Counted from the first letter of the stretch, positions 1,413-59,689 are shown. The stretch: 64,000 nucleotides of DNA from Syntrophomonadaceae bacterium (GCA_007132095.1 SLPH01000015.1:221-64220), one strand, 5' to 3'. Made by a program: numbers and translations. Notes: a model not told the origin generated them from the sequence alone.

Positions 1413-1666
1413 GTGTCAAACCTACTTTCCAAAGGATGATTATTTTGCAGTCGGTTAGCTTTATCGATAAGGCTTTTACAATGTTTCCACATCCTGGTGC
1501 TAAATCCTTTATAGCCGCAATGATCTTGTTCCGGGCACTATAAAACCGGCATTATAGCAACTGACTCCTTATTGACTCCATAGTAGATATTTTTGTAAAA
1601 TATTGATTAAAGAGAGCAAATGCTGTAATATTAGGACAACTATTAGCGTTCCGGGGAGGTTATGAA

Positions 1667-2581
1667 GTGGAAGAGGTCAGGTTTGACGGAAAAGTTGCGG
1701 TGGTTACAGGTGCGGGAGGGGGGCTGGGCAAAGCATACGCTTTGCTTTTGGCAGCCCGGGGAGCAAAAGTGGTGGTTAACGACCTGGGAGGAAGTTTCGA
1801 TGGCGAGGGCAGCGATGCTACGCCGGCCCAGGCGGTAGTTGACCAGATCAAAGCTGAAGGCGGTGAAGCGCTGGCCAACTACGATAGCGTAGCAGAGTGG
1901 GAAAGCGCCAGGGGCATCATTCAGACAGCTTTTGACAGTTACGGCAGGATTGATATTTTAATTAACAACGCCGGTATCCTGCGCGATAAAAGCCTGCTGA
2001 AAATGGAGCTGGAAGATTACCACAAAATAATGCAGGTCCACCTTGATGGAACATTTTATTGCACAAAAGCGGCTTTTGCTTACATGAAAGAGCAGTCATA
2101 CGGCAGGATAGTATCAACTGCATCGGCAGCCGGCCTTTACGGCAATTTTGGCCAGGTTAATTACGGGGCGGCGAAAATGGGCATAGTGGGGATGATGAAC
2201 TGCGTTGCCCAGGAGGGCGCCCGATACAATATTAAGGCCAATACTATTGTGCCGACGGCGGGAACGCGGCTAACTTTCACGGTCATGCCCGAAGAGATGA
2301 TTGGCAGGGTCAAACCTGAATACGTCGCTCCCCTGGTAGCCTGGATCTGTTCCGAACAATGTAACGAGACGGCTACAATGTTTAGCGCCGGCGGCGGTTA
2401 TTACAGCCGTGCAGCTATCGTGGAAGGGCAGGGGGTTGTTTTTGACCCTTCCGGTGAGATTAGCATCGAAATGATTGCCGGAAAAATGGACCAGATCCTG
2501 AGCCTGGAAAGCGCGGTTGAATACGCTTCGGCCATGGAACAGGCCGGAACAGTGCTTTCCAAAACCAATTCTGGAAGCTGA
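1667..2581 (+). CDS. Short-chain dehydrogenase, MFE-2 / 17beta-HSD4-type (3R)-hydroxyacyl-CoA dehydrogenase
   Basis: GTG start. Rossmann motif VAVVTGAGGGLGKAYALLLAARGAKVVVNDLGG, then NNAGILRD and a YxxxK context. The N-terminal layout matches the dehydrogenase domain of D-bifunctional protein. Confidence 0.75.
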   Translation: MEEVRFDGKVAVVTGAGGGLGKAYALLLAARGAKVVVNDLGGSFDGEGSDATPAQAVVDQIKAEGGEALANYDSVAEWESARGIIQTAFDSYGRIDILINNAGILRDKSLLKMELEDYHKIMQVHLDGTFYCTKAAFAYMKEQSYGRIVSTASAAGLYGNFGQVNYGAAKMGIVGMMNCVAQEGARYNIKANTIVPTAGTRLTFTVMPEEMIGRVKPEYVAPLVAWICSEQCNETATMFSAGGGYYSRAAIVEGQGVVFDPSGEISIEMIAGKMDQILSLESAVEYASAMEQAGTVLSKTNSGS

Positions 2582-2592
2582 AAAGGGGTGAC

Positions 2593-3447
2593 ATGATGCC
2601 AATAGATCCGGGTTTAGTAGGCCGCGAACTGCCTTCACTGGAATACAGTTACAACAGCAAAGATGTTATCCTCTATGCCCTGGGTATTGGGGCCGGGTCG
2701 AAACCCGTTGATTTGACCTTTCTTTACGAAGGTGATTTAAAGGTATTGCCTACCTTCGGGGTTATCCCGCCTTTTCCCGCTTTAACCGGGATCATCGGGC
2801 TGGAAGGGATGGATTTTAACCCGGCCATGCTGTTGCACGGAGAGCAGTATCTCGAGCTGTTTGGCCCTATACCGGAGCAGGGAAAGGTTAAATCATACCC
2901 GCGTATTTCCGCCATCTACGACAAAGGCAAGGGAGCGCTGGTGGAAATTGAGGTGACAACAAGAGATAGCAAGGAAAAGCCGCTCTTTTTAAATCGCTTC
3001 AGCGTCTTTATCCGCGGAGAAGGCGGTTTCGGGGGCGAAAAGGGTCCGGAACCCGGTTTTGAACCGCCTGACAGGGCTGCAGACCGGGTGGCATCCATGC
3101 CAACCCTGCCTCAGCAGGCATTGCTCTACAGGCTGAGCGGTGACTTTAACCCATTGCATGCCGATCCCCAATTTGCCGCCATGGCGGGCTTTGATATGCC
3201 GATCCTGCATGGGCTATGCACTTTCGGTTTCGCCGGACGGGCAGTTTTAGATGAGTTTTGCAACGGCGATCCGGCCCTCTTCAAGGCGATAAAGGTCCGT
3301 TTTTCCCGCCATGTTTATCCCGGTGAAACTATTGTCACTGAAATGTGGCAGGACCAACCCGACCTGGTTATCCTGCGTTCGAAAACAGTAGAAAGGGGCG
3401 AATACTGTTTGACTAACGCCGCTGTCTGGCTTAAAAGCCAATTATAA
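2593..3447 (+). CDS. MaoC-like (R)-specific enoyl-CoA hydratase (hydratase-2 domain, double hot-dog)
   Basis: 284 aa, the length of a double hot-dog. The NPLHADPQFA motif is characteristic of hydratase-2. It sits 11 nt downstream of the SDR gene. Confidence 0.75.
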   Translation: MMPIDPGLVGRELPSLEYSYNSKDVILYALGIGAGSKPVDLTFLYEGDLKVLPTFGVIPPFPALTGIIGLEGMDFNPAMLLHGEQYLELFGPIPEQGKVKSYPRISAIYDKGKGALVEIEVTTRDSKEKPLFLNRFSVFIRGEGGFGGEKGPEPGFEPPDRAADRVASMPTLPQQALLYRLSGDFNPLHADPQFAAMAGFDMPILHGLCTFGFAGRAVLDEFCNGDPALFKAIKVRFSRHVYPGETIVTEMWQDQPDLVILRSKTVERGEYCLTNAAVWLKSQL

Positions 3448-3466
3448 ATCGGAGGGGTGATAGAAT

Positions 3467-4933
3467 TTGCTGGGAATTAAATCGTACGCGGGATATATAC
3501 CCCGCTATCGCTTGAACCGGATGACAATCTTTAGCTCCATGGGTTGGCTGAACCCGGCTATAATTATGAATGCGGCCGGTGAAAAATCCGTAGCCAATTA
3601 CGACGAAGATTCTGTAACCATGGCTGCTGCGGCCGGCCAGCGCTGCCTTGAAGGGATCGGGCCGGCGCAGGTTGGTGCGCTCTATTATGCTTCGACTACT
3701 TCTCCGTTCCGGGAACGTTCGGCTGCCAATATTGTATCGGCTGCGCTTGGCATTGAGGAAAATGTTCGAAGCGCCGATTTTGGCAGCTCAGCCAAGGCGG
3801 GGACAACCGCCCTCATAAGCGCGATCGAATTTTGCGCCGCTAACCCGGATTTGTCGGCGCTTGCCGCAGCCGCAGACTGCAGAATTGGTAAAGTCGGTTC
3901 TGTCCAGGAGATGGTCTTTGGCGATGCCGGAGCGGCTGTGATGGTAGGCAGTGATGACGTCATAGCCGAGTTTGACGGCTCCTATTCGGTTTCCTGCGAC
4001 TTTGTTGATCATCTGAGGGGATCAGAGAGCAGATATGATCGGCAGTGGGAGGAACGCTGGATCCGCGATCTTGGCTACGAGCGGATCATTCCCGAAGCAA
4101 TTCAGGCTTACCTGGACAAGTATGGCAGCAGGATTGAAGATTATACGAAGATTATCTACCCCTGTTACTACGGCGCGGCCAGAAAGAACATCAACCGCAA
4201 GCTTGGACTTAACCCGGCCCAGCTGCAGGATGACCTGATGATGGAATGCGGCGACAGCGGGTCTGCTCACCCCCTGTTGCTGCTGGCCGGCGCGCTTGAA
4301 AATGCATCTTCCGGCGATAAGCTGATGGTAATTGGGTTCGGTTATGGCTGTGATATCCTCGGTTTTACGGTTACAGAAGCTATAGATCATTATAAGGATA
4401 GACTGAGAGTTTCAGATTCTATTAAAAGAGAGGCCGAATTGGATAGCTTCACCAAGTACCTGGCCTGGCGCGACATGCTCCCCGTTGAGGTGGGCTTGCG
4501 CGGCGAGGAAGATAAAATAACCCGCTGGTCCATGGTCTGGCGCAACCGGGGCGCGATCCTGGGCTTAAAAGGGACTGTTTGCCTGGCCTGCGGAACCAGG
4601 CAGTACCCGCCGCAGCGTATTTGCGTAAACCCTGACTGCGGCGCCATTGACCAGATGGAACCATTCCGCTTTGCTGATCAGGGAGGTAAAGTTGTCAGTT
4701 TCACCTCTGACATGCTGGCCGCGACCATCAATCCTCCCGCTATTTACGGCAACATCGATTTTAACGGCGGAGGGCGCTGCATGATGGACTTTACCGATTG
4801 CGCCATGGAAGATCTGGAGGTTGGAAAAGCGGTAAAATTTACATTCAGGGTTAAGTATTATGACCGGCGGCGGGATACTACTTTCTACTTTTGGAAAGCG
4901 GTCCCGGCAGAGGAGGTGCCTGTAAATGGCTGA
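3467..4933 (+). CDS. HMG-CoA synthase / FabH-like condensing-enzyme fold fused to a C-terminal DUF35 zinc-ribbon + OB-fold domain
   Basis: TTG start after GGAGGGG. The N-terminal ~350 aa look thiolase/HMGCS-like. The C-terminus has a CLACGTRQYPPQRICVNPDCG zinc ribbon followed by a beta-rich OB-fold-like tail, which matches DUF35. The gene overlaps the next thiolase gene by 8 nt. Confidence 0.65.
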   Translation: MLGIKSYAGYIPRYRLNRMTIFSSMGWLNPAIIMNAAGEKSVANYDEDSVTMAAAAGQRCLEGIGPAQVGALYYASTTSPFRERSAANIVSAALGIEENVRSADFGSSAKAGTTALISAIEFCAANPDLSALAAAADCRIGKVGSVQEMVFGDAGAAVMVGSDDVIAEFDGSYSVSCDFVDHLRGSESRYDRQWEERWIRDLGYERIIPEAIQAYLDKYGSRIEDYTKIIYPCYYGAARKNINRKLGLNPAQLQDDLMMECGDSGSAHPLLLLAGALENASSGDKLMVIGFGYGCDILGFTVTEAIDHYKDRLRVSDSIKREAELDSFTKYLAWRDMLPVEVGLRGEEDKITRWSMVWRNRGAILGLKGTVCLACGTRQYPPQRICVNPDCGAIDQMEPFRFADQGGKVVSFTSDMLAATINPPAIYGNIDFNGGGRCMMDFTDCAMEDLEVGKAVKFTFRVKYYDRRRDTTFYFWKAVPAEEVPVNG

Positions 4934-6131
4934 TGGAATCAGGGATAAAGTGGCAATCCTTGGTATGGGTTGTTCCAGGTTTGGCGAGCGCTGGGAGGAC
5001 GATTCTTCCGATCTGATTATCGAAGCCTTCAGGGAATGCCTTGAAGATGCCGGAATTGAGAAAAACGAGGTTCAGGCGGCCTGGATCGGCAATCATATCG
5101 ATCAGGTTAATATTGGCAAAGGCGGGTGCTACCTGGGCAGCACGCTTCATCTTCCCTTTATTCCTATCACCAGGGTGGAAAATTTCTGCGCTTCAGGGAC
5201 AGAAGCTTTTCGCGGAGCTTGCTATGCCGTAGCTTCCGGAGCCTATGACATTGTTCTGGCCGCCGGCGTGGAAAAGCTGAAGGATGTGGGCTATGGCGGC
5301 CTGCCCGATGATCCAATTTTTGGCCAGCTCTACAGGCTGCTTGGTCCCAATGCGACCGCTCCGGGTCTTTTTGCCCAGCTGGCTACCGCTTATTCGGCCC
5401 GTTACGGTGTCCCGATGGAAAAGATTAAGCAGGCTCTTACGCATATTTCCTGGAAAAGCCACCAGAACGGGGCTATGAATCCGCGTGCCCACCTGCGAAA
5501 GGAAATCAGCGAAACCCAGATTGCCGATTCTCCTTTTGTCGCTTATCCCCTGGGCCTTTTTGACTGCTGCGGAGTCAGCGACGGGGCGGCCATGGCCATT
5601 GTAACAACCCCGGAAATTGCATCCCGGCTGAAACCGGGTCAGGACCAGGTTCGGGTCAAAGCTCTGCAGATTGCCGTTAGCTCCGGCGAAGAGCTGATCT
5701 ATAACCGCTGGGACGGAAGTAGTTTTATGACCACGCAGCATGCTGCCAGGAGGGCATATGCAGAAGCGGGGATCAGTAACCCCCGCGAAGAAATTGGCAT
5801 GATGGAAGTGCATGATTGCTTCTCAATTACGGAAATGGTTACCATGGAAGACCTGCAGGTATCGCCTCCCGGCCAGGCTCCGGATGACATTCTGGGCGGG
5901 TTCTTTGATCTTGACGGCCAGATACCGTGCCAGCCTGACGGCGGCCTTAAATGTTTTGGTCATCCCATCGGCGCTTCGGGCCTGCGCATGATCTTCGAGG
6001 TCTATAACCAGCTGCTCAGGCGCTGGCCGGAGGAAAGGCTGGTAAAAGAACCTAAGCTTGGCTTAACCCACAACCTGGGCGGGGTCCCTTCGCAAAATGT
6101 ATGCAGTATCGGAATCTTTGGTTTAAACTAA
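4926..6131 (+). CDS. SCP-x type (nonspecific lipid-transfer protein-like) thiolase
   Basis: N-terminus VAILGMGCSRFGERW is typical of SCPx/DitF-type thiolases, and a [11 protein letters not shown] motif lies near the C-terminus. 401 aa. Confidence 0.75.
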   Translation: MADGIRDKVAILGMGCSRFGERWEDDSSDLIIEAFRECLEDAGIEKNEVQAAWIGNHIDQVNIGKGGCYLGSTLHLPFIPITRVENFCASGTEAFRGACYAVASGAYDIVLAAGVEKLKDVGYGGLPDDPIFGQLYRLLGPNATAPGLFAQLATAYSARYGVPMEKIKQALTHISWKSHQNGAMNPRAHLRKEISETQIADSPFVAYPLGLFDCCGVSDGAAMAIVTTPEIASRLKPGQDQVRVKALQIAVSSGEELIYNRWDGSSFMTTQHAARRAYAEAGISNPREEIGMMEVHDCFSITEMVTMEDLQVSPPGQAPDDILGGFFDLDGQIPCQPDGGLKCFGHPIGASGLRMIFEVYNQLLRRWPEERLVKEPKLGLTHNLGGVPSQNVCSIGIFGLN

Positions 6132-6158: not shown

Positions 6159-6200
6159 GCGGGCCGGGAGAACGGTTACCCGGCCCGCTATATTTGTGAT
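6159..6200 (+). terminator. Rho-independent terminator after the thiolase gene
   Basis: Perfect 10-bp stem gcgggccggg / cccggcccgc with a 10-nt loop, then a T-rich tail (tatatttgtgat). Confidence 0.5.
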
Positions 6201-6383: not shown

Positions 6384-7403
6384 GTGGGGAACACTTATCA
6401 ACCGGTGGAGCGTGCCGTATCTTATCAACCCGCCGGAGAAGGCAAAATATTTACCGATCCCGACGCAGATAAGGCCAGGGAATATTTTTATCACGAAAAG
6501 CCCCGTAAAATGGTGTCCAAAGAGACATCGGTAAAAGAAGCGGTATCAGCGCTGGTGAAAGATGGCGATTATATCGGGGTGGGCGGTTTTGGGGCAAACC
6601 GGATCCCCACAGCAATACTGCATGAAATTGTGCGTCAAAACAAAAAAAACCTGGGCCTGGCCGGACATACGGCAACCCATGACTTTCAGATCCTGGTAGC
6701 AGGCAACTGCATCAATCGTTGTGACATTGCCTATATCGTCGGGTTGGAAGCACGCGGGTTGTCGAAAATGGCCCGCCGGGCTGTCGAAAGCGGAGCGATA
6801 GAGATAACGGAGTGGACTAATGCCGCTCTCGCCTGGAGGTATAAGGCAGCTTCCATGGGGGTCTCCTTTTTGCCGGTCCGCTGCATGCTGGGAACGGACA
6901 CGGCTAAATACAGCGCTGCCGTGAAGATGGAGTGCCCTTTCACCGGATCGGTTTATCTTGCTGTTCCCGCCCTTTACCCTGATCTAGCCATAATTCATGT
7001 CCACCGGGCTGACGTTTACGGCAACTGCCAGATTGACGGGATTATGGTTTCCGATTACGATTTAGCCAGAGCTGCCAAGCGCCTGATTGTGACCACGGAG
7101 CGCTTTGTGCCAAACGAAGTTATCAGGAGAGAACCGGCCCGCACTGCTATTCCCTACTATCTTGTCGATGCCGTAATAGAGGTGCCTTTTGGAAGCTATC
7201 CGGGCAACATGGCTTATGAATACTACAGCGACGAAGAACACCTGCGCCAGTGGCTCGATGCAGACGGCGACGATGAAAAATTGAAGGATTTCCTGGAAAA
7301 GCATCTGTATGGGGTTCCTGATTTTGAAGCCTACCTGCAGACAGTGGGCGGTTTGAAAAAACTGCAAAAATTGCGCTCTCTAGAAAACCTGGTCGAGAAA
7401 TAA
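6384..7403 (+). CDS. gctA: CoA-transferase subunit A (glutaconate / 3-oxoacid CoA-transferase family I)
   Basis: GTG start 7 nt after AAGGAGGGG. GVGGFGANRIPTAILHEIVRQ is typical of GctA/AtoD-like alpha subunits. A B subunit follows. Confidence 0.7.
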   Translation: MGNTYQPVERAVSYQPAGEGKIFTDPDADKAREYFYHEKPRKMVSKETSVKEAVSALVKDGDYIGVGGFGANRIPTAILHEIVRQNKKNLGLAGHTATHDFQILVAGNCINRCDIAYIVGLEARGLSKMARRAVESGAIEITEWTNAALAWRYKAASMGVSFLPVRCMLGTDTAKYSAAVKMECPFTGSVYLAVPALYPDLAIIHVHRADVYGNCQIDGIMVSDYDLARAAKRLIVTTERFVPNEVIRREPARTAIPYYLVDAVIEVPFGSYPGNMAYEYYSDEEHLRQWLDADGDDEKLKDFLEKHLYGVPDFEAYLQTVGGLKKLQKLRSLENLVEK

Positions 7404-7469
7404 AAGAGCCGGATCAGCATTCTCCCGGCATATTTATTTGTCTGGCCTGATAGGAATGGGGTTTATATT

Positions 7470-8252
7470 GTGAGCAGCTACAACAAAATGGAGCTGATGA
7501 TCTGTCTCGCTTCCCGCTACCTTGAAGACGACAGCATCGTTGTGGTCGGAACAGGTGCTCCCTGCGCGGCGGCGATGCTGGCCCAAAAAATGTATTCTCC
7601 CCGGCTGATGATTATGTTCGAGGCGGGAGGTATAGGGCCGCTGCTGCCTTCAATGCCCATATCGGTTGGCGACTCGCGCACTTTCTACCGCGGTCTGGGC
7701 GCCAGCAGCATGCCCGAAATTATGGAAACCTGCCAGCGCGGCCTGGTCGACTACACTTTTTTAGGCGGGGCGCAGATCGATATGTATGGTAATATTAATT
7801 CGACTATGGTCGGAACTGATCACGCCCGCCCAAAAGTTCGCTTTCCAGGCAGCGGAGGGGCAAATGATCTGGCCTCCTTCTGCTGGAAAACGATGATGAT
7901 CACGCCGCAGGATAAGCGGCGTTTCACCGAAAAAATCGATTTTGTCACATCGCCGGGCTACCTTGACGGGCCCGGCGCCCGGGAAGCGGCAGGATTGCCG
8001 CCTGGCACCGGGCCGTATAAAGTTATAACCGACCTTTGCGTGATCGGATTTGATGGCGAGAGCAAGAGAATGAAGGTGGAAAATATTCACCCCGGGCTTG
8101 ATCGGGAAGTTATTGCTGAAAACACGGGGTTCGAACTGCTGTGGTCTGAAAACCTGGTTCAGAGTGAGCCCCCTACAGCTGCAGAACTGCAGTGCCTGAG
8201 GGAGGAAGTAGATCCATACCGCTATATTATCGGCCGCAGCGGTCCCGGTTAA
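7470..8252 (+). CDS. gctB: CoA-transferase subunit B
   Basis: 260 aa. The Gly-rich [12 protein letters not shown] segment is typical of the beta subunit. It sits directly after subunit A. Confidence 0.7.
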
Positions 8253-8295
8253 ACTTATACACCTGTATGCAACCTTAAAAAATGGAGGGATGTTG

Positions 8296-9477
8296 ATGAT
8301 AAAAGAAGCAGTAATCCTCAGCGCTGTCCGGACTGCCGTTGGCACCTATGGCGGGTCTTTAAAAGAGGTGAACGCGGCTGAACTGGGAGCCTTGACTATT
8401 AAAGAATCCCTGCAGCGGGCCGATATTGATCCGGCGATGGTTGATGAAGTGATGATGGGCTGTGTCCTGCAGGGAGGGGTAGGGCAGAACATAGCCAGGC
8501 AGGCGGCCTTAAAAGCGGGTTTGCCGGTGGAGGTCCCCTGCACTACGGTGAACAAGGTTTGCGGCTCCGGGTTAAAATGCATCACTGCCGCAGCTACCGA
8601 AATTATGGCCGGTGAAGCTGACCTGATTGTTGCCGGCGGGATGGAAAATATGAGCGCTTCACCTTACCTGCTTCAAAAAGCGCGCTGGGGGATGCGCATG
8701 GGCGATACCCCTGTTGTCGATATGATGATCAAAGATGGTCTCTGGTGTGCTTTCAACAACTATCACATGGGTATTACAGCAGAGAACCTGGCCGACCAGT
8801 TTGGTATTGGCAGGGAAGAACAGGATCTTTTTGCTTTCGAAAGCCAGGAAAAAGCGCGCAGGGCAATTGAAACCGGGCGTTTTGAAGACGAAATAGTCCC
8901 GGTAGAGATACCGCAGCGTAAAGGAGATCCACTTTATTTTAAAGTTGATGAACACCCTCGTTCAACGACGATGGAATCCCTGGGAGGGCTAAAACCTGCT
9001 TTTAAAAAAGATGGAACTGTTACTGCGGGAAACGCTTCCGGAATAAACGATAGCGCGGCTGCCCTGGTGGTAGCGAGCGCGGAAAAAGCAGAAGAGCTGG
9101 GTTTAAAACCCCTCTGCACCATCCGCAGCTTTGCCTCAGCCGGTGTTGATCCTTCCATCATGGGAACGGGCCCGATCCCTGCATCGCGCAAGGCGCTGAA
9201 AAAAGCGGGATGGTCTATTGGAGATCTTGATCTGGTTGAAGCGAACGAAGCTTTTGCTGTCCAGGCCCTGACTGTCATGAAAGAGCTGGGTCTTGATCCG
9301 GAAAAAACGAATGTAAACGGGGGAGCAATAGCGCTGGGGCACCCGATAGGGGCCAGTGGGGCCCGCATATTTGTCTCCCTGGTGCACGAAATGATCAAGC
9401 GCGGGGCCGGTAAAGGCCTGGCCACGCTTTGTATCGGCGGGGGGATGGGTATAGCCTGCGCCGTGGAAAGGGCATAG
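8296..9477 (+). CDS. Acetyl-CoA C-acetyltransferase (thiolase II)
   Basis: Canonical thiolase motifs: VCGSGLK with the active-site Cys, [18 protein letters not shown], and [10 protein letters not shown] chose the ATG 6 nt after GGAGGG rather than the SD-adjacent ATG at 8290. Confidence 0.85.
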
Positions 9478-10446: not shown

Positions 10447-13400
10447 ATGGGAACTGTAGAACAGGACAGATCGGATCTACCTGCAATAGGGCTTGACATA
10501 GGTGTATTTTCATCAAAGGGAGTACTGATAAAAGACGGGAGAATTGATTATATAACCGTTCCTACAGCCGGGCGCCCGGCTGAGGCTGCCTGGGGCTGTT
10601 TAAGCGCCCTGCTCGGTAAAGAGCTTAGCGGCAAAGCCCGTATTGGTATAATGGGCCAGAACGGAAAACTTGTTGCCGGCATTATCGGGCTGCAGCCGGT
10701 CCTCGAAATAGAAGCATTGCAGACCGGGCTGGAAAGCCTGCAAATCGGGGCTGAGTATGTAATATCGCTTGGCCATGAGAATATGCATTACCTTGAGCTG
10801 GATGAAAAGGGACGGATTAAATTTTTTAACCGTAATGGCCAGTGCGCCGCCGGTAGCGGATCGTTTTGGTACCAGCAGGCGACCCGCATGGGCTATAATG
10901 ATCGCCAGCTCGCTGAAATTGCGGCCGAAGCGGAAACGGCAGTTCCTATTTCCGGGCGCTGCGCTGTTTTCGCCAAGTCGGACATGACTCACGCAATCAA
11001 CGAAGGCGCCACCCAAAGCGCTGTCTCAGCCGGTATGGCTGCCGCCCTGGTGGAAACGGTAATTACCGGGGTGGCTTTAAACAGGATGCAGGGGCCGGCC
11101 ACGCTTGCCCTCAGCGGCGGCGTGGCAAATAATAAAGCGGTGACCAAGTATCTCAGGGCCTTTGCCGAAAAAAATGGGATTAAAGTAATTATTCCAGACA
11201 AACATGAATATATAAACGCTGTTGGAGCCGCATTAAAGGGGACGCCGATTGATTTAGGCACCCTGAACGAGAACGTGCTGAAAACCCCAAAGTTTAAAAC
11301 CGACCAGCCCCTGCCTCCGCTGGATCCGGGGCTGGTCCACTACCTGGAAAATGATCAGGCAAGCCCTGAATTTGATTTAAGCCGGGTTTACCTTGGAGTT
11401 GACTGCGGATCGGTCTCAACCAAGTGCGTTTTGCTCGATCAGCAGGGCGAAAAAATTGGAGGGATTTACCTTCCCACAACCGGCCGTCCCGCCCTGCAGG
11501 TTTTGCAGCTAATTCGTCACGTTGCCGATCGCTATGGGAAAATGCTCGAAGGTTCGCCTATTACGGTCTGCACTACCGGTTCAGGCCGCTTTCTGTCCCA
11601 AAAGATTCTGAACGCCGAGTATGCTGTTGATGAAATAACCTGCCAGGCCGAAGGATTGAAATACCTCTTTCCTGATGAACAGGCCCTGGCAATTATTGAA
11701 ATCGGCGGAGAAGATTCAAAGTTTGTCCAACTTAAGGAAGGTATTTTATACGACTACAACATGAACCCGGTTTGCGCGGCCGGAACGGGAACGTTTTTGG
11801 AAAACCTGGCCGAACTGCTTGGCGTCAAGATCGACGGCGAGTTCTCCCAGAAGGCCTTTCAGGCAGAGTATGCGGTAGACCTCGGCGATATCTGCACACT
11901 TATATCCCAATCGATCCTGGCTTCCGCATCAGCCAGGGGCCTGCCGCTGAACGAACAGCTGGCCAGCCTTGCTTATTCATCGGCCCAAAACTATCTCAGT
12001 AAAACAGTTGATAAGCGGCCCCTGGAAGGAAAGATTGTTTTTGCCGGGGCTACGGCAAAAAACAGCGCCCTTGCTGCAGCTTTGGCTACGATCTGCGAAA
12101 ATGAGATCACCGTGTCTGCCGAACCGGAACTGACAGGAGCGCTGGGTTGTGCCCTGATGGCCAGGCAGCTATACCGGAAAGGGAAAAAAGGATTATACTC
12201 ATTCCGCAACCTTTCTGATATAAGGAAGTTTACCACCGATAAGCGGCCCTGCAAGGCCGATTGCATTCATGAACATAACTGTATTCTTAACATAATAACT
12301 TTTGCTGACGGAAACAGATTCATTTACGGCGATCGCTGCGGACGTTTTTCGGGCCTGGAAAGACGCAGCGACCATTACGAGCTGCCGGATTACTGCGCTG
12401 AACGCAATGGACTCCTGGCCGGATATGAAAATGAAAAGAAAGAGACGGGTCCGCTGGTCTGCATGGCCCGCAGCGGTCTCTACTATGAATACTTTCCTTT
12501 CTGGTCGGCTTTTTTCAACAAGCTGGGCTGCAGGGTCTCCCTTTCAAAGTATTCTACCGCCGAAACCCTGGAAAAAGGCAAGGTCAGCCTTGATTCAGAG
12601 ATGTGTTACCCTATGAAGGTTATAGTCGGCCATTATGCAGAGCTGCTTGAGGGCGACTGCGATTATATTTTTATACCCGAAGTTGTGGATATGGAAGCCC
12701 TGCCCTGGACCGATCTTTGGCCTCGCTCCTTTGTCTGTCCGCTGCTGCAAACCCTGCGCGGAACAGTGGTCAACTCCCTGGATATTGATGAAAATAGAAT
12801 TCTCTATGCCCAGTTAAATTACCGGGCCGGCCCCAGGGTGATCCGGGATCAGCTTAAGCCCCTTGCATTCGAAATACTTGGTCCCGATTACAGCGAAGCC
12901 AGATTTGAACAGGCCCTGGATAGCGCTTACAGCGCCTTAAATGAATTCCGCGGCGAGCTTGTCGTAGCCGCTGAAAGAGCCCTGGAAAGCCTGGCCGGCA
13001 ATACCGATAACGGAGCTGTTGTCTTCCTGGGGAGAAGCTATACGCTTTACGACGACTACATAGCCAAGAAATCGATGCACTATGCCAGGGAAAGCGGGCT
13101 CTTTTCGCTGCCCCACGAATATCTCTTTTACTATATGTCGGCCTGGATGAAAGGGGAAATTAAATCGGCCTTTCTTGATCGCTACAGGCAGGAATTTAAA
13201 GATTACCTTGAACGGCATATCGAGATCATGGAAAATATCTACCCGGCCCAGCTGCAAAGAATGCTTTCTGTGGTCCTGCTGGTTAACTTTCTTAACCTGA
13301 AAAACGGCGAAACCGGTTTACCCCGCCTCAACCTGATCTTTCTCGATCCGTTCAAATGCGGGCCTAATGCCATGATGCGCCACTACTTAAGCGGCCTTTG

Positions 13401-14790
13401 CAGCTACCTCCGCTTAACGATAGACGAGCATACTGCCGCCGCCGGGATGATAACCCGGCTTGAGGCTTTCAAAAATACCTGTCTCTCTAACACCAGCGTC
13501 AGGCAGATAGAGATGCATTCATCGAAAACATGCTCGGTTACCGATGAAAACTGGAACAAGATCCTGATCCCTGAGCCGACCAGGCACGCTGCTATATTTG
13601 CTGCGCTGTTCAGGAGCGCCGGCGTTGAGGCGGAGGTTATTCCCCGCAGCAAAACCGGCGACCTTTCTTTAGCCCGAAAATATGTAAACGGCGAGGAATG
13701 TCTTCCATTCCTGCAAAACCTGCAGGATTTCCTGGCGTACCTGAAAAGCGAGGTTGTAAGCGAAGAGAGCAGGCCGGTTTTCTTCCAGGGATGGGCCTGC
13801 GGCCCCTGTCGGTACGGTCTATATGCACCCACCCAGGCTTTGGCCATTAACAGGGCGGGATTTGGCGAGATGAGGGTCTGTGCGATTAAGTTTAGCGACG
13901 TTGCAAAGAGGTTTGGATATGGGTTTGTCCTCGGCTTTTACAGCGCGGTTTTAACGATGGATATTCTCTATAAACTGCTGCATCGCGTCCGGCCTTATGA
14001 AACGAAAAAAGGCGAAGCAGACCAGGTTTTTGAGCGATATACCAACAGGCTTATCGAAGAGGCGGAAAAATTCCGCTTCCGGTTAGCGGCTTTCCCGGGA
14101 GGCCGCTACAGGAAACCTTTTGAGACGCTTATTGGTGAAGCGGCAGAAGAATTCGCCAGGATCGAGCGAAAAAGCGGAGTCAAGCCGAGGATTCTCTTAA
14201 ACGGCGAATTCTACGTGCGCCTCGACGATCGTTGTAACCAATCTGTGATCGATAAAATTGAGGCAGCGGGAGGAGAAGTCTCACTGGCCCCTGCGACCGA
14301 GTTATTCGCCTACACTATACACATTGATTACCTTGAAGCCATCCATTCGTTCAGGATCAACCGCAGGCCGGGCGATTATTTCAAGCGCATTTTCTATAAG
14401 CAGCTGATCAAGGTTGCCCATCGCGATGAAGCCGCTTTACACAAAGCTGCAGGACCTTTGCTGAGGGGACTTGAAGAACCTTCACCCGAAGAGATCATGC
14501 AGAGAGCGCAAAAATATGTATCGCCCCACTATGGCGGTGAACCGCCGATGACCATAGGCAGGGCAGCTGCTTTTGCCAGGAGGGGGAAGGCTGCAGGAGC
14601 AATTTTTGTCGCCCCCTTTACCTGCATGCCGGCCTCTGTCGTTGAAGCCCAGCAGGGAAGCCTCCAGGAGGAGCTCGGTATACCTATGGTAACAGTTTAT
14701 TACGATGGTAAAGAGAACAGCAACCGTGACGAGCTGGTCGAAGGGCTGGTTTTCCAGGCCCGTCAGCGTATCGGGGCCGGAAAAGCTTAA
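10447..14790 (+). CDS. Giant fusion of two BadF/BadG/BcrA/BcrD-type (HgdC-like) acyl-CoA dehydratase activase ATPase domains with a long C-terminal region I think matches DUF2229 (distantly HgdA/B-like)
   Basis: 1447 aa. The N-terminal ~600 aa hold two actin-fold ATPase repeats (IGLDIGVFSSKG..., VYLGVDCGSVSTKC...). The remaining ~850 aa carry Cys motifs CPLLQTLRG, FKCGPNAMMRHY, GWACGPCRYG and FTCMPASVV. The name DUF2229 is from memory and unverified. Confidence 0.7.
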   Translation: MGTVEQDRSDLPAIGLDIGVFSSKGVLIKDGRIDYITVPTAGRPAEAAWGCLSALLGKELSGKARIGIMGQNGKLVAGIIGLQPVLEIEALQTGLESLQIGAEYVISLGHENMHYLELDEKGRIKFFNRNGQCAAGSGSFWYQQATRMGYNDRQLAEIAAEAETAVPISGRCAVFAKSDMTHAINEGATQSAVSAGMAAALVETVITGVALNRMQGPATLALSGGVANNKAVTKYLRAFAEKNGIKVIIPDKHEYINAVGAALKGTPIDLGTLNENVLKTPKFKTDQPLPPLDPGLVHYLENDQASPEFDLSRVYLGVDCGSVSTKCVLLDQQGEKIGGIYLPTTGRPALQVLQLIRHVADRYGKMLEGSPITVCTTGSGRFLSQKILNAEYAVDEITCQAEGLKYLFPDEQALAIIEIGGEDSKFVQLKEGILYDYNMNPVCAAGTGTFLENLAELLGVKIDGEFSQKAFQAEYAVDLGDICTLISQSILASASARGLPLNEQLASLAYSSAQNYLSKTVDKRPLEGKIVFAGATAKNSALAAALATICENEITVSAEPELTGALGCALMARQLYRKGKKGLYSFRNLSDIRKFTTDKRPCKADCIHEHNCILNIITFADGNRFIYGDRCGRFSGLERRSDHYELPDYCAERNGLLAGYENEKKETGPLVCMARSGLYYEYFPFWSAFFNKLGCRVSLSKYSTAETLEKGKVSLDSEMCYPMKVIVGHYAELLEGDCDYIFIPEVVDMEALPWTDLWPRSFVCPLLQTLRGTVVNSLDIDENRILYAQLNYRAGPRVIRDQLKPLAFEILGPDYSEARFEQALDSAYSALNEFRGELVVAAERALESLAGNTDNGAVVFLGRSYTLYDDYIAKKSMHYARESGLFSLPHEYLFYYMSAWMKGEIKSAFLDRYRQEFKDYLERHIEIMENIYPAQLQRMLSVVLLVNFLNLKNGETGLPRLNLIFLDPFKCGPNAMMRHYLSGLCSYLRLTIDEHTAAAGMITRLEAFKNTCLSNTSVRQIEMHSSKTCSVTDENWNKILIPEPTRHAAIFAALFRSAGVEAEVIPRSKTGDLSLARKYVNGEECLPFLQNLQDFLAYLKSEVVSEESRPVFFQGWACGPCRYGLYAPTQALAINRAGFGEMRVCAIKFSDVAKRFGYGFVLGFYSAVLTMDILYKLLHRVRPYETKKGEADQVFERYTNRLIEEAEKFRFRLAAFPGGRYRKPFETLIGEAAEEFARIERKSGVKPRILLNGEFYVRLDDRCNQSVIDKIEAAGGEVSLAPATELFAYTIHIDYLEAIHSFRINRRPGDYFKRIFYKQLIKVAHRDEAALHKAAGPLLRGLEEPSPEEIMQRAQKYVSPHYGGEPPMTIGRAAAFARRGKAAGAIFVAPFTCMPASVVEAQQGSLQEELGIPMVTVYYDGKENSNRDELVEGLVFQARQRIGAGKA

Positions 14791-16575: not shown

Positions 16576-17763
16576 ATGCAGAAACCGTTATCCGGAATTA
16601 AAGTAGTCGATCTTAGCCGTTTTATTGCCGGCCCTTACTGCACCATGAAACTGGGGGACATGGGGGCAGAGGTGATCAAAATTGAAACACCCGGTAAAGG
16701 CGACGACTCGCGCGCCCTTGGCCCCCCGTTCATCAATGGCGAGTCGGCCTACTACCTTTCGTTTAACCGCAACAAGAAAAGCCTTACCCTGAACTTACGT
16801 GAAGCTGAAGCAAAAGAAATCCTGATTAAACTGATCCGGGAAGCCGATATCCTGGTAGAAAATTTCCGGATCGGGGTTACGGCCAAAATGGGCCTGACTT
16901 ATGAAGACGTTAAGAAAATAAAAGAGGATATCATTTACTGTTCTATTACCGGGTACGGTCATAACAGCCCTTACCGGGAAAAGCCAAGTTTTGATGTAAT
17001 GATCCAGGGTGAAGCGGGGCTGATGAGTATTACCGGGTTTCCCGATGGTCCGCCGCAAAGGGTGGGCATAGCCATTGCCGATATAATGGGCGGATTCCAC
17101 GCTGTCGAAGGCATCCTGCTGGCCCTGCTCGTTCATGGCAGAACCGGAAAGGGCCAGTTTGTCGATGTTTCGCTGATGGATTCAATCATCGCTATTCTAA
17201 CTTACCAGGCCGGGCACTTTCTGGCCACAGGCGAAGCCCCGGAGCGTGTCGGCAACCGTCACCCCATGATAACCCCTTACGAAAGCTTTGAAACCGCTGA
17301 CGGCTACGTTATTTTTGCCGTCGGAAACCAGCGCCTCTGGGAGAGTTTTATCTCCAGGCTGGGCCGGGAAGACCTGGGCCTGGATTCGCGTTTTGCCGAC
17401 ATGCAGGGAAGAAACAGCCATCCGGCGGATTTGAAAGAAATCCTCGAAGATATCACCCGTCAGAAGACTACGGAAGAATGGGTAGAGATCATGGAAGGGG
17501 CCGGTGTGCCCTGCGGCAGGATTCGCACCCTGGACCAGGTGCTAACCGATCCCCATGTCGATGCCAGGGAGATGGTGCTTGAGAAAGAACATCCCCTGGC
17601 CGGAAAGATCAAACTGACGGGAGTACCGACCAAACTCTCCCTGACGCCGGGAGAAGTTATGGCTGCGCCGCCAACCCTGGGCCAGCATAATGAGGAGATC
17701 CTGCTGAAGCTTGGTTACGAGAAAAAGGAGATCGCCAGGCTGACTGAAGGAAGCATTATTTAA
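16576..17763 (+). CDS. Family III CoA-transferase (CaiB/BaiF / alpha-methylacyl-CoA racemase superfamily)
   Basis: N-terminus LSGIKVVDLSRFIAGPYCTMKLGDMGAEVIKIE is diagnostic of the CaiB/BaiF family. Confidence 0.8.
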   Translation: MQKPLSGIKVVDLSRFIAGPYCTMKLGDMGAEVIKIETPGKGDDSRALGPPFINGESAYYLSFNRNKKSLTLNLREAEAKEILIKLIREADILVENFRIGVTAKMGLTYEDVKKIKEDIIYCSITGYGHNSPYREKPSFDVMIQGEAGLMSITGFPDGPPQRVGIAIADIMGGFHAVEGILLALLVHGRTGKGQFVDVSLMDSIIAILTYQAGHFLATGEAPERVGNRHPMITPYESFETADGYVIFAVGNQRLWESFISRLGREDLGLDSRFADMQGRNSHPADLKEILEDITRQKTTEEWVEIMEGAGVPCGRIRTLDQVLTDPHVDAREMVLEKEHPLAGKIKLTGVPTKLSLTPGEVMAAPPTLGQHNEEILLKLGYEKKEIARLTEGSII

Positions 17764-59648: not shown

Positions 59649-59689
59649 AGGTTCATCCCCTTTTTAAGTAATTTTAGTGGCGCGTCATT

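Follow-up and report, generated by a model that had tools for sequence, protein, structure and literature searches.

A putative (R)-specific beta-oxidation operon with a proposed pseudo-enzyme scaffold for its thiolase in a Syntrophomonadaceae bacterium

Introduction

A four-gene module of a Syntrophomonadaceae bacterium raises the question of what an HMG-CoA-synthase (HMGCS)-like protein fused to DUF35 is doing among enzymes of the beta-oxidation type. The module lies in a stretch of 64,000 nt (GCA_007132095.1 SLPH01000015.1:221-64220), referred to below as the window. An earlier reading, made from the sequence alone, had described it as a split module of MFE-2 and SCPx type with a condensing enzyme between hydratase and thiolase, dedicated to a hindered acyl-CoA. 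Here, we propose that the operon accounts for the middle and late part (three steps) of an NAD-linked (R)-specific (D-specific) beta-oxidation, with the thiolase held by a pseudo-enzyme scaffold, a reading to which we give a probability of roughly 0.6.

Results

Layout of the module

The four ORFs, all on the plus strand, were recovered with exactly the boundaries proposed in the sequence-only reading (Table 1). Gaps of 11 nt (SDR/hydratase) and 19 nt (hydratase/fusion) separate the first three, and the fusion and thiolase genes overlap by 8 nt. The GTG start codon of the SDR gene (1667) is preceded by the ribosome-binding site GGGGAGG and, 66 nt upstream, by a promoter-like site; such sites are no more numerous in the region than expected from shuffled sequences. 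The hairpin located 28 nt past the thiolase stop codon has a minimum free energy of -27.3 kcal/mol (z = -4.8), with an equally good fold in 0 of 200 shuffles, and is likely a terminator or attenuator ending the four-gene unit. It was overlooked by a simple terminator scan because its loop has 10 nt.

Table 1. Features of the module and its surroundings (positions within the window)
Feature	Position	Strand	Details
Promoter-like site	1572-1601	+	TTGACT, 18 nt spacer, TAAAAT; consensus match only
MFE-2-type SDR	1667-2581	+	304 aa; adh_short, PDB matches
Two-domain hydratase-2	2593-3447	+	284 aa; MFE-2_hydrat-2_N + MaoC_dehydratas
HMGCS-like::DUF35 fusion	3467-4933	+	488 aa
N-terminal HMGCS-like (thiolase-fold) domain	3467-4471	+	residues 1-335
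Interdomain linker, low confidence	4472-4543	+	residues 336-359; AlphaFold2 pLDDT <50
DUF35: Cys4 zinc ribbon + OB fold	4544-4933	+	residues ~360-488; stop included
SCP2/archaeal-type 3-ketoacyl-CoA thiolase	4926-6131	+	401 aa; NF004810, 6ESQ_A
GC-rich hairpin	6159-6188	+	10-bp stem, then UAUAUUUGUG
Glutaconate-CoA-transferase-type subunits A and B	6384-8252 (A 6384-7403, B 7470-8252)	+	CoA_trans (Pfam)
Ordinary thiolase II (acetyl-CoA C-acetyltransferase)	8290-9477	+	Thiolase_N 2.6e-103; TIGR01930 492 bits

Three enzymes with intact motifs

Pfam, NCBIfam and PDB sequence matches agreed on the identity of all four genes, which stand as first proposed. The SDR (adh_short, 4e-44) matched the (3R)-hydroxyacyl-CoA dehydrogenase of Candida tropicalis MFE-2 (2ET6, 1e-137) and human HSD17B4 (2e-91), with 1ZBQ (2e-91) and 1GZ6 (6e-90) among the PDB entries matched, and it keeps the TGxxxGxG, NNAG and Y166-x3-K170 motifs. 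Asp39, at the end of beta-2 (VVVNDLG), was shared by every homologue that has a residue aligned there (42, out of 43 rows). An Asp at this position is an established marker of NAD(H) preference in classical SDRs, as in MFE-2. The protein is thus probably an NAD-dependent (3R)-hydroxyacyl-CoA dehydrogenase, both the stereochemistry and the cofactor preference being predicted from sequence. The hydratase gave matches to MFE-2_hydrat-2_N (3.7e-41), MaoC_dehydratas (2.3e-29) and human MFE-2 hydratase-2 (1S9C, 2e-74). Its motif YRLSGDFNPLHADPQFA, including the catalytic D184 and H189, is nearly invariant in 29 sequences, and a putative (R)-specific enoyl-CoA hydratase is indicated. The split MFE-2 type was in this way confirmed for both proteins.

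The thiolase showed matches to Thiolase_C_1 (3.4e-27) and Thiolase_N. Against NF004810/PRK06157 it scored 634 bits (cutoff 403), whereas the FadA-type model TIGR01930 gave just 72 bits, in agreement with its earlier placement in the SCPx type rather than with FadA; the enzyme is of the SCP2 (HDCF) type. Its best match of solved structure was the thiolase of M. thermolithotrophicus (6ESQ_A, 2e-54), and it also matched SCP2-thiolase (6HSJ, 1e-40), BbsB (7PXP_C, 2e-37) and Ltp2 (2e-13); PhlC was matched by the C-terminal third alone (1e-21). In an alignment of 66 sequences (the window protein and 65 homologues), C88, H296-D-C-F and G-H346-P are kept in 63-64. With an MFE-2-type SDR, a hydratase-2 and an SCP2-type thiolase, the module does differ from the standard fadBA set.

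The fusion protein has lost the HMG-CoA synthase active site

The 488-aa protein combines an HMGCS fold with DUF35, as had been supposed. Residues 2-338 matched the archaeal HMG-CoA synthase model PRK04262 (1e-59), and ACP_syn_III_C was weakly matched. At the C-terminus, zf-ChsH2 scored above its cutoff (26.9 bits) and OB_ChsH2_C just under (22.7 bits). This marginal single-sequence match of DUF35 became solid once a family profile was used, with 6ESQ_E matched over its full length (4.5e-13) and PhlB at about 4e-5 (4.4e-5). The zinc-ribbon residues C372, C375, C386 and C391 are invariant in 33 sequences.

The HMGCS-like domain matched PhlA (5M3K_A, 7e-39), with the HMGCS of M. thermolithotrophicus trailing (6ESQ_I, 4e-29); PhlA, this HMGCS and MucA were also the top Foldseek matches (target-normalised TM-score 0.83-0.87). 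Residue-by-residue alignment revealed that the catalytic tetrad E-C-H-N is fully replaced by T78, A109, P232 and D263. It is missing in all 132 homologues examined, the sets including 120 homologues and nine distant fusions (eight records from cultured bacteria and the metagenomic locus L087). The domain resembles PhlA more than a true HMG-CoA synthase and, judging from these replacements, should be catalytically dead, i.e. no condensing enzyme. The sequence-only reading had likened the locus to the archaeal channelling of acetoacetyl-CoA to HMG-CoA; this analogy fails at the catalytic core because all four tetrad positions are replaced, here and across the family. PhlA and the HMGS-DUF35 fusion of P. 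fluorescens, which is likewise inactive (PMC12960953), are the closer relatives.

Genomic distribution and neighbourhoods

Adjacency of the fusion and thiolase genes is practically obligate, holding in 72 of 73 genomic loci from several phyla, and the SDR and hydratase-2 genes lie immediately upstream of the pair in 24 of 27 Bacillota loci. Identity to the window proteins was higher for the thiolase than for the fusion, both in Bacillota (80-86% vs 63-70%) and in cultured Proteobacteria and Actinobacteria (46-62% vs 32-40%), a pattern in keeping with a scaffold serving a catalytic subunit. The combination had been thought peculiar to an anaerobic Firmicute. This did not hold, since the pair occurs in Actinomycetota, Chloroflexota, Desulfobacterota and cultured aerobic Proteobacteria and Actinobacteria, and the identical four-gene order was found in cultured Variovorax paradoxus and Sphingomonas paeninsulae, where it adjoins acyl-CoA dehydrogenases and CoA-transferases.

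Linkage to (R)-type hydratases, SDRs, acyl-CoA dehydrogenases, ligases and CoA-transferases recurs among these loci. In V. paradoxus the order is LysR, SDR, MaoC, fusion, thiolase, acyl-CoA dehydrogenase, CoA-transferase and TTT binding protein. In Dehalococcoidia the genes are those for an acyl-CoA ligase, fusion, thiolase, split MaoC hot-dogs, SDR(s) and two acyl-CoA dehydrogenases; L087 has an acyl-CoA dehydrogenase, SDR, hydratase-2, fusion, thiolase, ligase and crotonase, and four acyl-CoA dehydrogenases accompany the pair in Diaphorobacter. In Actinomycetota the pair usually stands without beta-oxidation neighbours.

In the window, the upstream neighbour is a cysteine-desulfurase-like gene on the opposite strand, and no acyl-CoA dehydrogenase or synthetase lies on that side; the rest of the window is housekeeping. 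Downstream, the CoA-transferase subunits matched GctA (1POI_A, 5e-33) and GctB (1POI_B, 2e-51), with the Glu of MFEAGG in subunit B aligned to the Glu of GctB IIVESG, which we take to be the catalytic one. CoA-transferase genes come after the module in eight Bacillota loci and a thiolase II lies near it in 16 of 31; either may be functionally linked to it.

Discussion

Proposed function

In the reading preferred here, hydratase-2 would convert 2-enoyl-CoA to (3R)-hydroxyacyl-CoA, the SDR would oxidise this with NAD+ to 3-oxoacyl-CoA, and the thiolase would cleave the product with CoA. The fusion would be a pseudo-enzyme and no fourth enzyme of the route. By analogy with the archaeal thiolase/HMGCS/DUF35, PhlACB and MucABC complexes, it most likely binds the thiolase, which would stay soluble and assembled, and it may also provide a surface on which the dehydrogenase and hydratase dock. 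A precedent is the DUF35-thiolase core of S. acidocaldarius, which binds an (R)-specific SDR and a MaoC dehydratase (bioRxiv 10.1101/2024.07.05.601840). In P. fluorescens, PfACAT/HMGS-DUF35, in which the HMGS is fused and lacks the tetrad while the ACAT has Cys/HDxF/GHx, cleaves acetoacetyl-CoA and forms neither acetoacetyl-CoA nor HMG-CoA (PMC12960953), and the window pair is expected to behave likewise, with thiolysis rather than HMG-CoA synthesis. As substrates, acyl-CoAs with a straight or 2-methyl-branched chain would be candidates, and so would (R)-3-hydroxyacyl-CoAs, for example PHA monomers. The beta-oxidation cycle is incomplete locally, since neither the operon nor the 64-kb window holds an acyl-CoA dehydrogenase, ETF or ligase.

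The peroxisomal MFE-2/HSD17B4 and SCPx enzymes supply the same three reactions, with homologous dehydrogenase and hydratase-2, intact motifs and the HDCF signature. In the window, however, the enzymes are encoded by separate genes, neither carries an SCP2 lipid-transfer domain, and the pseudo-HMGCS/DUF35 partner of the thiolase has no counterpart in the eukaryotic system. The complex of M. thermolithotrophicus (6ESQ) has the same three modules, with a TM-score of 0.87 for the HMGCS fold, but its HMGCS is active and channels acetoacetyl-CoA to HMG-CoA, its DUF35 is a separate protein, and its partners are mevalonate rather than beta-oxidation enzymes.

Alternative explanations

The direction of the reactions is not fixed by sequence, and archaeal relatives of the complex favour condensation. 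The same proteins might therefore work in reverse and form the bacterial counterpart of the CoA-dependent fatty-acid synthase complex of archaea: the scaffolded thiolase would condense acetyl-CoA, or acyl-CoA with acetyl-CoA, the SDR would pull the reaction by reducing 3-oxoacyl-CoA to (R)-3-hydroxyacyl-CoA, and hydratase-2 would dehydrate it, for PHA synthesis or for CoA-dependent chain elongation and butyrate formation. We consider this unlikely, although several observations speak for it. The archaeal KT/DUF35 complex has a 60-fold higher catalytic efficiency for condensation than the stand-alone thiolase (bioRxiv 10.1101/2024.07.05.601840), the closest solved relative of the thiolase is archaeal, Syntrophomonas wolfei is known to turn over PHA (PMC4324140), and the operon has no acyl-CoA dehydrogenase. 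The SDR-hydratase-2 pair also exists without fusion and thiolase, once as a close pair (L086) beside the PHA synthase genes PhaE-PhaC, which hints at a biosynthetic or storage link. On the other hand, the sole characterised complex with a fused, dead HMGS performs thiolysis and no condensation in vitro (PMC12960953), and neither PhaC/PhaE nor an enoyl-CoA reductase is encoded in the window. The S. acidocaldarius system likewise unites a DUF35-associated thiolase, an (R)-type SDR and a MaoC-family hydratase/dehydratase, but its reductase is strictly NADPH-dependent and biosynthetic, an MDR enoyl-CoA reductase takes part, no HMGCS-like domain is present and its genes are dispersed, whereas the window SDR is NAD-type (Asp39) and MFE-2-like and the hydratase is a two-domain protein. 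The neighbours in other phyla, which are acyl-CoA dehydrogenases, ligases, CoA-transferases and uptake proteins and not reductases or synthases, count for the catabolic reading.

A degradative route for a hindered acyl-CoA (2-methyl-branched, alicyclic, alkylsuccinate-derived, isoprenoid or steroid-like), as first suggested for the locus, would need a DUF35-associated SCP2-type thiolase, the substrate being closed to ordinary FadA. In peroxisomes, 2-methyl-branched and bile-acid intermediates are handled by MFE-2 and SCPx, and the two-domain architecture of hydratase-2 gives MFE-2 room for bulky substrates. Rieske dioxygenase subunits, crotonases and an acyl-CoA ligase accompany the pair in Rhodococcus, M. 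avium and Variovorax SRS16, a setting that recalls the ibuprofen ipfABDEF theme (PMC9195938), and a phytanoyl-CoA dioxygenase-family gene lies near the module in Sphingomonas. BbsB and Ltp2 are detectable relatives, and in BbsAB benzoylsuccinyl-CoA thiolase, the Ltp2-ChsH2(DUF35) steroid aldolase and IpfDE, all of them catabolic, the SCP2-type thiolase fold requires a DUF35 partner. Nevertheless, BbsB and Ltp2 show much lower similarity to the window thiolase, DUF35 is alone or fused to a MaoC hydratase in these systems and never to an HMGCS-like domain, and their substrate-specific neighbour genes are absent from the window. Nothing in the 64 kb points to the alkylsuccinate, alicyclic or isoprenoid candidates, and glycyl-radical, ring-reducing, carboxylating and isoprenoid-specific enzymes are absent from the window and from the Bacillota relatives. 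The closest counterpart of the thiolase is an acetoacetyl-CoA thiolase, its characterised relative cleaves plain acetoacetyl-CoA, and the adjoining CoA-transferase and thiolase II suit short-chain substrates. A hindered substrate seems doubtful, more so than the condensing direction.

The HMGCS-like domain is closest to PhlA in sequence and fold and shares with it the tetrad loss and a tripartite architecture, as would suit a Friedel-Crafts C-acyltransferase of the PhlACB (P. protegens) or MucABC (S. macacae) type acting on a small-molecule acceptor. This is disfavoured and highly improbable, since the thiolase keeps the HDxF motif like true thiolases, whereas PhlC and MucB, which acetylate small molecules, have lost it, and the linked genes encode beta-oxidation enzymes; the partial PhlC match also speaks against it. 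DUF35 is a separate protein in those systems and the genes lie in secondary-metabolite clusters, while PKS or NRPS genes are absent by the module, as they are around PfACAT/HMGS-DUF35. Public entries name the fusion 'hydroxymethylglutaryl-CoA synthase', and the PRK04262 match, the fold and the 6ESQ-like partners would agree with a working synthase/thiolase channelling complex in mevalonate, leucine or isovalerate metabolism. Such a function is effectively refuted by the missing nucleophile. The PRK04262 score (202 bits) is under the family cutoff of 244, no mevalonate-pathway genes lie near the module, and the archaeal enzyme no longer forms HMG-CoA once its tetrad is mutated (PMC12960953).

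Relation to the published class

The window pair answers to the published description of PfACAT/HMGS-DUF35 in its HMGS-like::DUF35 fusion, the loss of E-C-H-N and the retained thiolase motifs. About 1,000 'uncharacterised' bacterial HMGS/ACAT/DUF35 loci have been reported, and their authors see in the class an 'evolutionary intermediate' that no pathway has so far recruited (Liao et al., Nat Commun 2026, PMC12960953). The cassette is common in bacteria, and annotations routinely misname it "HMG-CoA synthase". In contrast to an unrecruited class, the pair studied here shares a conserved operon with the dehydrogenase and hydratase of a split MFE-2, and it is accompanied by acyl-CoA dehydrogenases, ligases and CoA-transferases in other phyla.

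Results

Organization of the four-gene module

All four components proposed in the sequence-only reading, an MFE-2-type dehydrogenase (SDR), a hydratase-2, an HMG-CoA synthase (HMGCS)-like::DUF35 protein (the fusion) and its partner thiolase, proved correct, and their open reading frames lay exactly where that reading had placed them. The intergenic gaps in this module are 11 nt and 19 nt, and the fusion and thiolase genes overlap by 8 nt. A promoter-like site is regarded as weak evidence, since the counts of the simple promoter and terminator scan were not above those of shuffled sequences, while the hairpin behind the thiolase gene was spotted by eye and then confirmed by folding. Based on the short gaps and the overlap, together with the promoter-like site and the hairpin, the four genes look like a single transcription unit. 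Its upstream neighbour is a cysteine-desulfurase-like gene on the opposite strand, and downstream lie genes for glutaconate-type CoA-transferase subunits A and B, a thiolase II, an ornithine carbamoyltransferase (OTC) and a BcrAD/BadFG-DUF2229 protein of 1447 aa. When the ORFs of 150 aa or more were annotated with Pfam, neither PKS/NRPS or other secondary-metabolite genes nor an MDR enoyl reductase turned up in the window.

Features of the window considered in this analysis
Feature	Position	Strand	Details
Promoter-like site	1572-1601		TTGACT, 18 nt spacer, TAAAAT; weak evidence
SDR gene	1667-2581	+	304 aa, GTG start
Hydratase-2 gene	2593-3447	+	284 aa
Fusion gene	3467-4933	+	488 aa, TTG start
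Thiolase gene	4926-6131	+	401 aa
Hairpin	6159-6188		10-bp GC-rich stem, then U-rich stretch; 28 nt 3' of thiolase stop; MFE -27.3 kcal/mol, z = -4.8
Glutaconate-CoA-transferase-type A/B pair and thiolase II	6384-8252, 8290-9477	+	conserved directly 3' of the module in 8 Bacillota loci
Giant 'CoA-enzyme activase'	10447-14790	+	1447 aa; two BcrAD/BadFG ATPase domains and DUF2229; just after OTC
Family-III CoA-transferase	16576-17763	+	PF02515, 2.5e-133
Cumulative GC skew peak	about 44000-49000		gene orientation shifts from mostly + to mixed or -
LeuA-type 2-isopropylmalate synthase gene	46020-47561	-	
T-box leader	47621-47865	-	120.7 bits; upstream of the LeuA-type gene
Tyrosine recombinase gene	48050-49012		Phage_integrase family
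Na+-translocating decarboxylase membrane module	58515-60497	-	OAD_beta, 140-aa biotin carrier with EAMKM, 132-aa gamma-like protein

The fusion has lost the catalytic residues of HMG-CoA synthase

In the AlphaFold2 model of the fusion (mean pLDDT 77, pTM 0.82), residues 1-335 form an HMG-CoA-synthase fold, which is followed by a low-confidence linker (336-359) and by a Cys4 zinc ribbon plus OB fold (about 360-488). Matches to DUF35 were marginal with the single fusion sequence. A profile built from 33 family members aligned over the full length with the DUF35 chain of 6ESQ, the Methanothermococcus thermolithotrophicus thiolase/HMGCS/DUF35 complex (4.5e-13), and matched PhlB at 4e-5, and because of this full-length match the protein does contain the DUF35/OB part that had been assigned to it. 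Three of the four zinc-ribbon cysteines are lost in the fusions of Sphingomonas paeninsulae (L091; C,T,S,D) and Variovorax sp. SRS16 (L093; C,T,S,R), and therefore zinc binding is not universally required in the family.

When aligned to the archaeal synthase (6ESQ_I), the catalytic Glu, Cys, His and Asn correspond to Thr78, Ala109, Pro232 and Asp263 in the fusion. In 120 homologues, Thr stands in place of Glu, Asp in place of Asn and, without exception, Pro in place of His; the Cys position is occupied by Leu, Val, Ile, Thr or Ala, never by Cys. The tetrad is likewise missing in nine distant homologues (eight from cultured bacteria and one from a metagenomic locus), whose partner thiolases show perfect motifs. 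The fusion scored below the cutoff of the NCBIfam HMGCS models, and in sequence as well as in fold its HMGCS-like domain is nearest to the non-catalytic PhlA subunit of the PhlACB acyltransferase, with true HMG-CoA synthase less close. Judged by its residues, the fusion is a predicted pseudo-enzyme as regards HMG-CoA synthesis. Homologues in public records (P0003, P0014, P0048, P0063, P0070 and others; 485-490 aa) carry the name 'hydroxymethylglutaryl-CoA synthase (family protein)' or 'FabH C-terminal domain protein', although every homologue examined lacks the catalytic tetrad. The loss of the tetrad corrects this common mis-annotation as HMG-CoA synthase, and mevalonate/HMG-CoA readings of the fusion in MAG reconstructions of Syntrophomonadaceae, Geothermincolia, Dehalococcoidia and Desulfobacterales would be wrong.

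The thiolase is related to SCP2 and archaeal thiolases

The thiolase passed the NCBIfam model NF004810 with 634 bits (cutoff 403), as compared with 72 bits for the FadA/thiolase-II model TIGR01930. Its best solved relative is the thiolase of the M. thermolithotrophicus complex (2e-54), followed by SCP2-thiolases (1e-40) and BbsB (2e-37); the match to PhlC (1e-21) was confined to the C-terminal third, and Ltp2 matched at 2e-13. The motifs C88-A-S, H296-D-C-F and G-H346-P are present, and Cys88, HDCF and GHP are kept in 63-64 sequences of an alignment of 66, made up of the window protein and 65 homologues. Thus, the protein carries the SCP2-type HDCF signature and is nearer to SCP2/archaeal thiolases than to FadA/thiolase I-II, in agreement with the earlier expectation that it would not group with FadA. 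Unlike eukaryotic SCPx, which has a C-terminal SCP2 lipid-transfer domain, it consists of thiolase domains only, and no Pfam match to an SCP2 domain was found in the module proteins. The thiolase HDxF and the DUF35 connector are shared with the archaeal thiolase/HMGCS/DUF35 complex, the DUF35 being fused in the window instead of free.

The dehydrogenase and the hydratase resemble a split MFE-2

Comparison with PDB sequences placed the SDR in the MFE-2 (3R)-hydroxyacyl-CoA dehydrogenase subfamily. Its best solved relatives are Candida tropicalis MFE-2 (2ET6, 1e-137), human HSD17B4 (1ZBQ, 2e-91) and 3OML (9e-91), with Drosophila and rat MFE-2 also among them, and FabG-type SDRs matched much more weakly (about 1e-44). 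Cofactor and catalytic motifs are intact. Classical SDRs that prefer NAD(H), MFE-2 among them, are marked by an Asp where strand beta-2 ends; Asp39 occupies this place in the window SDR (VVVNDLG) and was found in 42 of the 42 relatives with a residue aligned there (43 rows). The hydratase-2 is a two-domain hot-dog protein carrying both Pfam domains, MFE-2_hydrat-2_N and MaoC, and the motif [YF]-x-x-[STGC]-G-D-x-N-P-[LIV]-H. It is matched by human hydratase-2 (1S9C) at 2e-74, and its motif YRLSGDFNPLHADPQFA, including the catalytic Asp184 and His189, is nearly invariant in 29 sequences. From homology and Asp39, both enzymes are predicted to be (R)-stereospecific and the SDR to depend on NAD+. 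In contrast to MFE-2, in which dehydrogenase, hydratase and SCP2 domains reside in a single polypeptide, the genes in the window are separate.

The fusion-thiolase pair is conserved across phyla

A full-length fusion homologue was found in 80 loci from species-representative genomes, all of them MAGs, which span Syntrophomonadaceae and other Bacillota, Actinomycetota (Geothermincolia, Anoxymicrobiaceae), Dehalococcoidia, Desulfobacterales and a few other groups. Room for a thiolase gene directly 3' of the fusion exists in 73 loci, and it is present there in 72 (median gap, 12 nt); these counts come from tblastn, as ORF calls in some high-GC Actinomycetota loci took antisense ORFs. With respect to the window proteins, conservation is in every case higher for the thiolase than for the fusion, with identities of 80-86% versus 63-70% in Bacillota and of 46-62% versus 32-40% in cultured Proteobacteria and Actinobacteria, a difference which fits an enzyme paired with a scaffold.

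SDR and hydratase-2 genes are found directly upstream of the pair in 24 of 27 Bacillota loci, the remaining three having the SDR only. Bacillota relatives share further synteny with the window (CoA-transferase A/B, thiolase II, OTC, a DinB-like polymerase and the family-III CoA-transferase), and a contig of GCA_007123165.1 encodes a 99%-identical fusion protein in the same gene order; taken together, these likenesses put the window in an uncultured lineage akin to Syntrophomonadaceae. Outside Bacillota, the partners differ in detail, not in kind. Dehalococcoidia combine an acyl-CoA ligase, fusion, thiolase, two half-size MaoC hot-dog proteins, one or two SDRs and two acyl-CoA dehydrogenases (ACADs). 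In L056 and L057, both from Desulfobacterales, MaoC and a ligase come after the ACAD(s), fusion and thiolase, and L056 also has an SDR ahead of MaoC. MaoC and SDR are commoner neighbours than crotonase and (S)-type 3-hydroxyacyl-CoA dehydrogenase. In eight Actinomycetota and two Desulfobacterota loci (L028, L031-L033, L039, L040, L047, L051, L057 and L070), the pair is joined by a conserved protein of about 120 aa that matches no Pfam family; its gene is directly upstream of the fusion in nine of them and downstream of the thiolase in L057, and the window has no homologue of it.

Beyond MAGs, tblastn of plasmids and chromids yielded 36 records with full-length fusion homologues at about 30-40% identity, and in all eight annotated records that were read an "acetyl-CoA acetyltransferase" of about 400 aa is encoded 3' of the fusion gene. 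Variovorax paradoxus VAI-C and Sphingomonas paeninsulae YZ-8 show the order of the window: SDR, MaoC, fusion, thiolase. Genes for a LysR regulator, for ACADs, for family-III CoA-transferases and for TTT-type binding proteins flank the V. paradoxus cassette; Diaphorobacter has four ACADs, with SDR and MaoC genes just downstream, and Azoarcus KH32C has ETF, SDR and split MaoC genes near the pair. The distribution of the cassette extends well past anaerobic Firmicutes, with the fusion-thiolase pair occurring in Actinomycetota, Dehalococcoidia and Desulfobacterales and the complete four-gene order in cultured Variovorax and Sphingomonas. In Rhodococcus qingshengii, M. avium pP7a and Variovorax SRS16, the pair is located amid Rieske dioxygenase subunits, crotonases and an ACAD, with an acyl-CoA ligase also nearby in the first two. 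This arrangement recalls the ibuprofen genes ipfABDEF, in which IpfDE is a thiolase pair (PMC9195938), and is only a lead.

A reverse search, starting from hydratase-2 homologues with 63-67% identity, showed that the SDR-hydratase-2 pair is a conserved unit by itself. It occurs with ACAD, fusion, thiolase, ligase and crotonase in locus L087, and alone in L088 and L089. In L086 (6053-11800), fusion and thiolase are missing, and a pair 64% identical to that of the window has a class-III PHA synthase (PhaE-PhaC) and an ACAD as neighbours; this context suggests a connection of the split MFE-2 pair with PHA metabolism. A conserved multi-4Fe-4S (Fer4) protein of about 332 aa is encoded convergently beside those SDR-hydratase-2 pairs that lack fusion and thiolase (L086 7910-8905, L088 8617-9615, L089 7954-8952, all on the minus strand).

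Discussion

The pair belongs to a class described in 2026, and its enzymes are of well-known families. In a genome-mining study, Liao et al. (Nat Commun 2026) collected 1,030 bacterial loci where HMGS, ACAT and DUF35 genes lie together, of which 1,001 were without secondary-metabolite genes; from these they characterised a Pseudomonas fluorescens complex in which HMGS and DUF35 are fused, the tetrad is missing and the ACAT keeps Cys, HDxF and GHx (PMC12960953). When given acetyl-CoA, this complex yielded no acetoacetyl-CoA and no HMG-CoA, but acetoacetyl-CoA itself was cleaved in a reaction that required the HDxF histidine (PMC12960953). The window pair shows all sequence-level features of this class, as taken from the paper's description: an HMGS-like fold followed by the DUF35 zinc ribbon/OB in one polypeptide, absence of E-C-H-N, an adjacent thiolase with CxS, HDxF and GHx, and no PKS/NRPS nearby. 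Regarding the coupling of the pair to a split MFE-2 in a conserved operon, and its embedding in acyl-CoA catabolic clusters across phyla, no earlier description was found in the literature searched. Likewise, we found no published description of the four-gene cassette; searches for literature on DUF35/MaoC/anaerobic thiolase and on HMG-CoA synthase/OB-fold/beta-oxidation yielded only steroid and unrelated papers.

Among the activities that a thiolase/HMGCS/DUF35 locus could have, that of an active HMG-CoA synthase is rejected because of the replaced tetrad residues in the fusion and its homologues, and the archaeal channelling likeness drawn in the sequence-only reading does not extend to a competent Glu-Cys-His-Asn synthase. 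A Friedel-Crafts acylase of the PhlACB/MucABC type, in which the ACAT-like subunit lacks HDxF and the acceptor pocket is remodelled (PMC12960953), is rejected because of the conserved HDCF of the window thiolase. Liao et al. viewed the P. fluorescens class as an evolutionary intermediate not yet recruited to a pathway (PMC12960953). The neighbourhoods contradict this view, since the pair is strongly constrained, obligately adjacent and repeatedly found in acyl-CoA catabolic operons, preferentially with (R)-type hydratases and SDRs, and they offer a concrete, testable physiological role. The initial interpretation holds in that the genes make up a D-specific beta-oxidation module whose thiolase is of the SCP2 type and associated with DUF35; what it misses is that the HMGCS part is dead.

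In such a D-specific module, hydratase-2 would convert 2-enoyl-CoA to (3R)-hydroxyacyl-CoA, the NAD-type MFE-2-like SDR would then oxidise it, and the thiolase would cleave the product. The pseudo-synthase/DUF35 fusion would hold the thiolase in a heteromer, paralleling MucB and Saci_1121, thiolase-type subunits that are insoluble or not expressible without their partners (PMC12960953; bioRxiv 10.1101/2024.07.05.601840); by this analogy, the thiolase is probably in a heteromer with the fusion. What was measured for the P. fluorescens complex, the NAD type of the SDR and the gene neighbours seen elsewhere favour the catabolic direction, although it is not proven for the window organism. No ACAD is present in the window operon. 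Nothing in the window points to the alkylsuccinate, alicyclic or isoprenoid substrates suggested earlier; the nearby Gct-type CoA-transferase and thiolase II would suit short-chain substrates, e.g., (R)-3-hydroxybutyrate or crotonate-derived CoA esters. A connection with PHA turnover, a process established for Syntrophomonas wolfei (PMC4324140), is reasonable as a sub-hypothesis, and the PhaEC genes in L086 hint at it too.

In Sulfolobus acidocaldarius, the fatty-acid synthase complex has a thiolase/DUF35 core to which a MaoC dehydratase and an (R)-specific SDR reductase are bound (bioRxiv 10.1101/2024.07.05.601840). The archaeal reductase is NADPH-specific, with an NADPH enoyl-CoA reductase as partner, whereas the window SDR has the NAD-type Asp39. 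Docking of SDR and hydratase-2 on the scaffold is only an analogy with this archaeal complex, gene linkage being what is observed. We speculated that the four proteins might constitute one physical 'D-specific beta-oxidation metabolon', in which the dead HMGCS-DUF35 hub docks SDR and hydratase-2 onto the archaeal-type thiolase and 3-oxoacyl-CoA is channelled through a retained inter-subunit CoA chamber, a proposal to which we give roughly one chance in four. If it is true, roughly 1,000 bacterial HMGS/ACAT/DUF35 loci that are now orphans would acquire a physiological role and be tied evolutionarily to the archaeal mevalonate/fatty-acid-synthase complexes and to peroxisomal MFE-2/SCPx. A fusion acting as assembly hub would be a clear case of a dead enzyme retained as a scaffold; in bacteria, it would be the counterpart to peroxisomal MFE-2/SCPx as well as to the archaeal fatty-acid synthase complex.

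Other features of the window

In subunit B of the CoA-transferase pair behind the module, the Glu of MFEAGG aligns to the Glu of GctB's IIVESG, which we take to be the catalytic residue. Since subunit B is far closer to GctB (2e-51) than to the AibAB decarboxylase or the IpdAB hydrolase (1e-19 and 2e-10), and since this Glu is aligned, a true CoA-transferase is the more likely prediction. Together with thiolase II, the pair may supply or remove short-chain CoA esters. A protein of about 1480 aa, 26% identical to the giant activase, is encoded near the fusion in a Desulfobacteraceae locus (L049). The family-III CoA-transferase is syntenic in related Bacillota MAGs, and its family also flanks the V. 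paradoxus cassette. No carboxyltransferase (alpha) gene was found near the decarboxylase membrane module. The window also contains a T-box leader upstream of a 2-isopropylmalate synthase gene and a tyrosine recombinase gene, and the region of the cumulative GC skew peak may be a replication-terminus region or an integration site.
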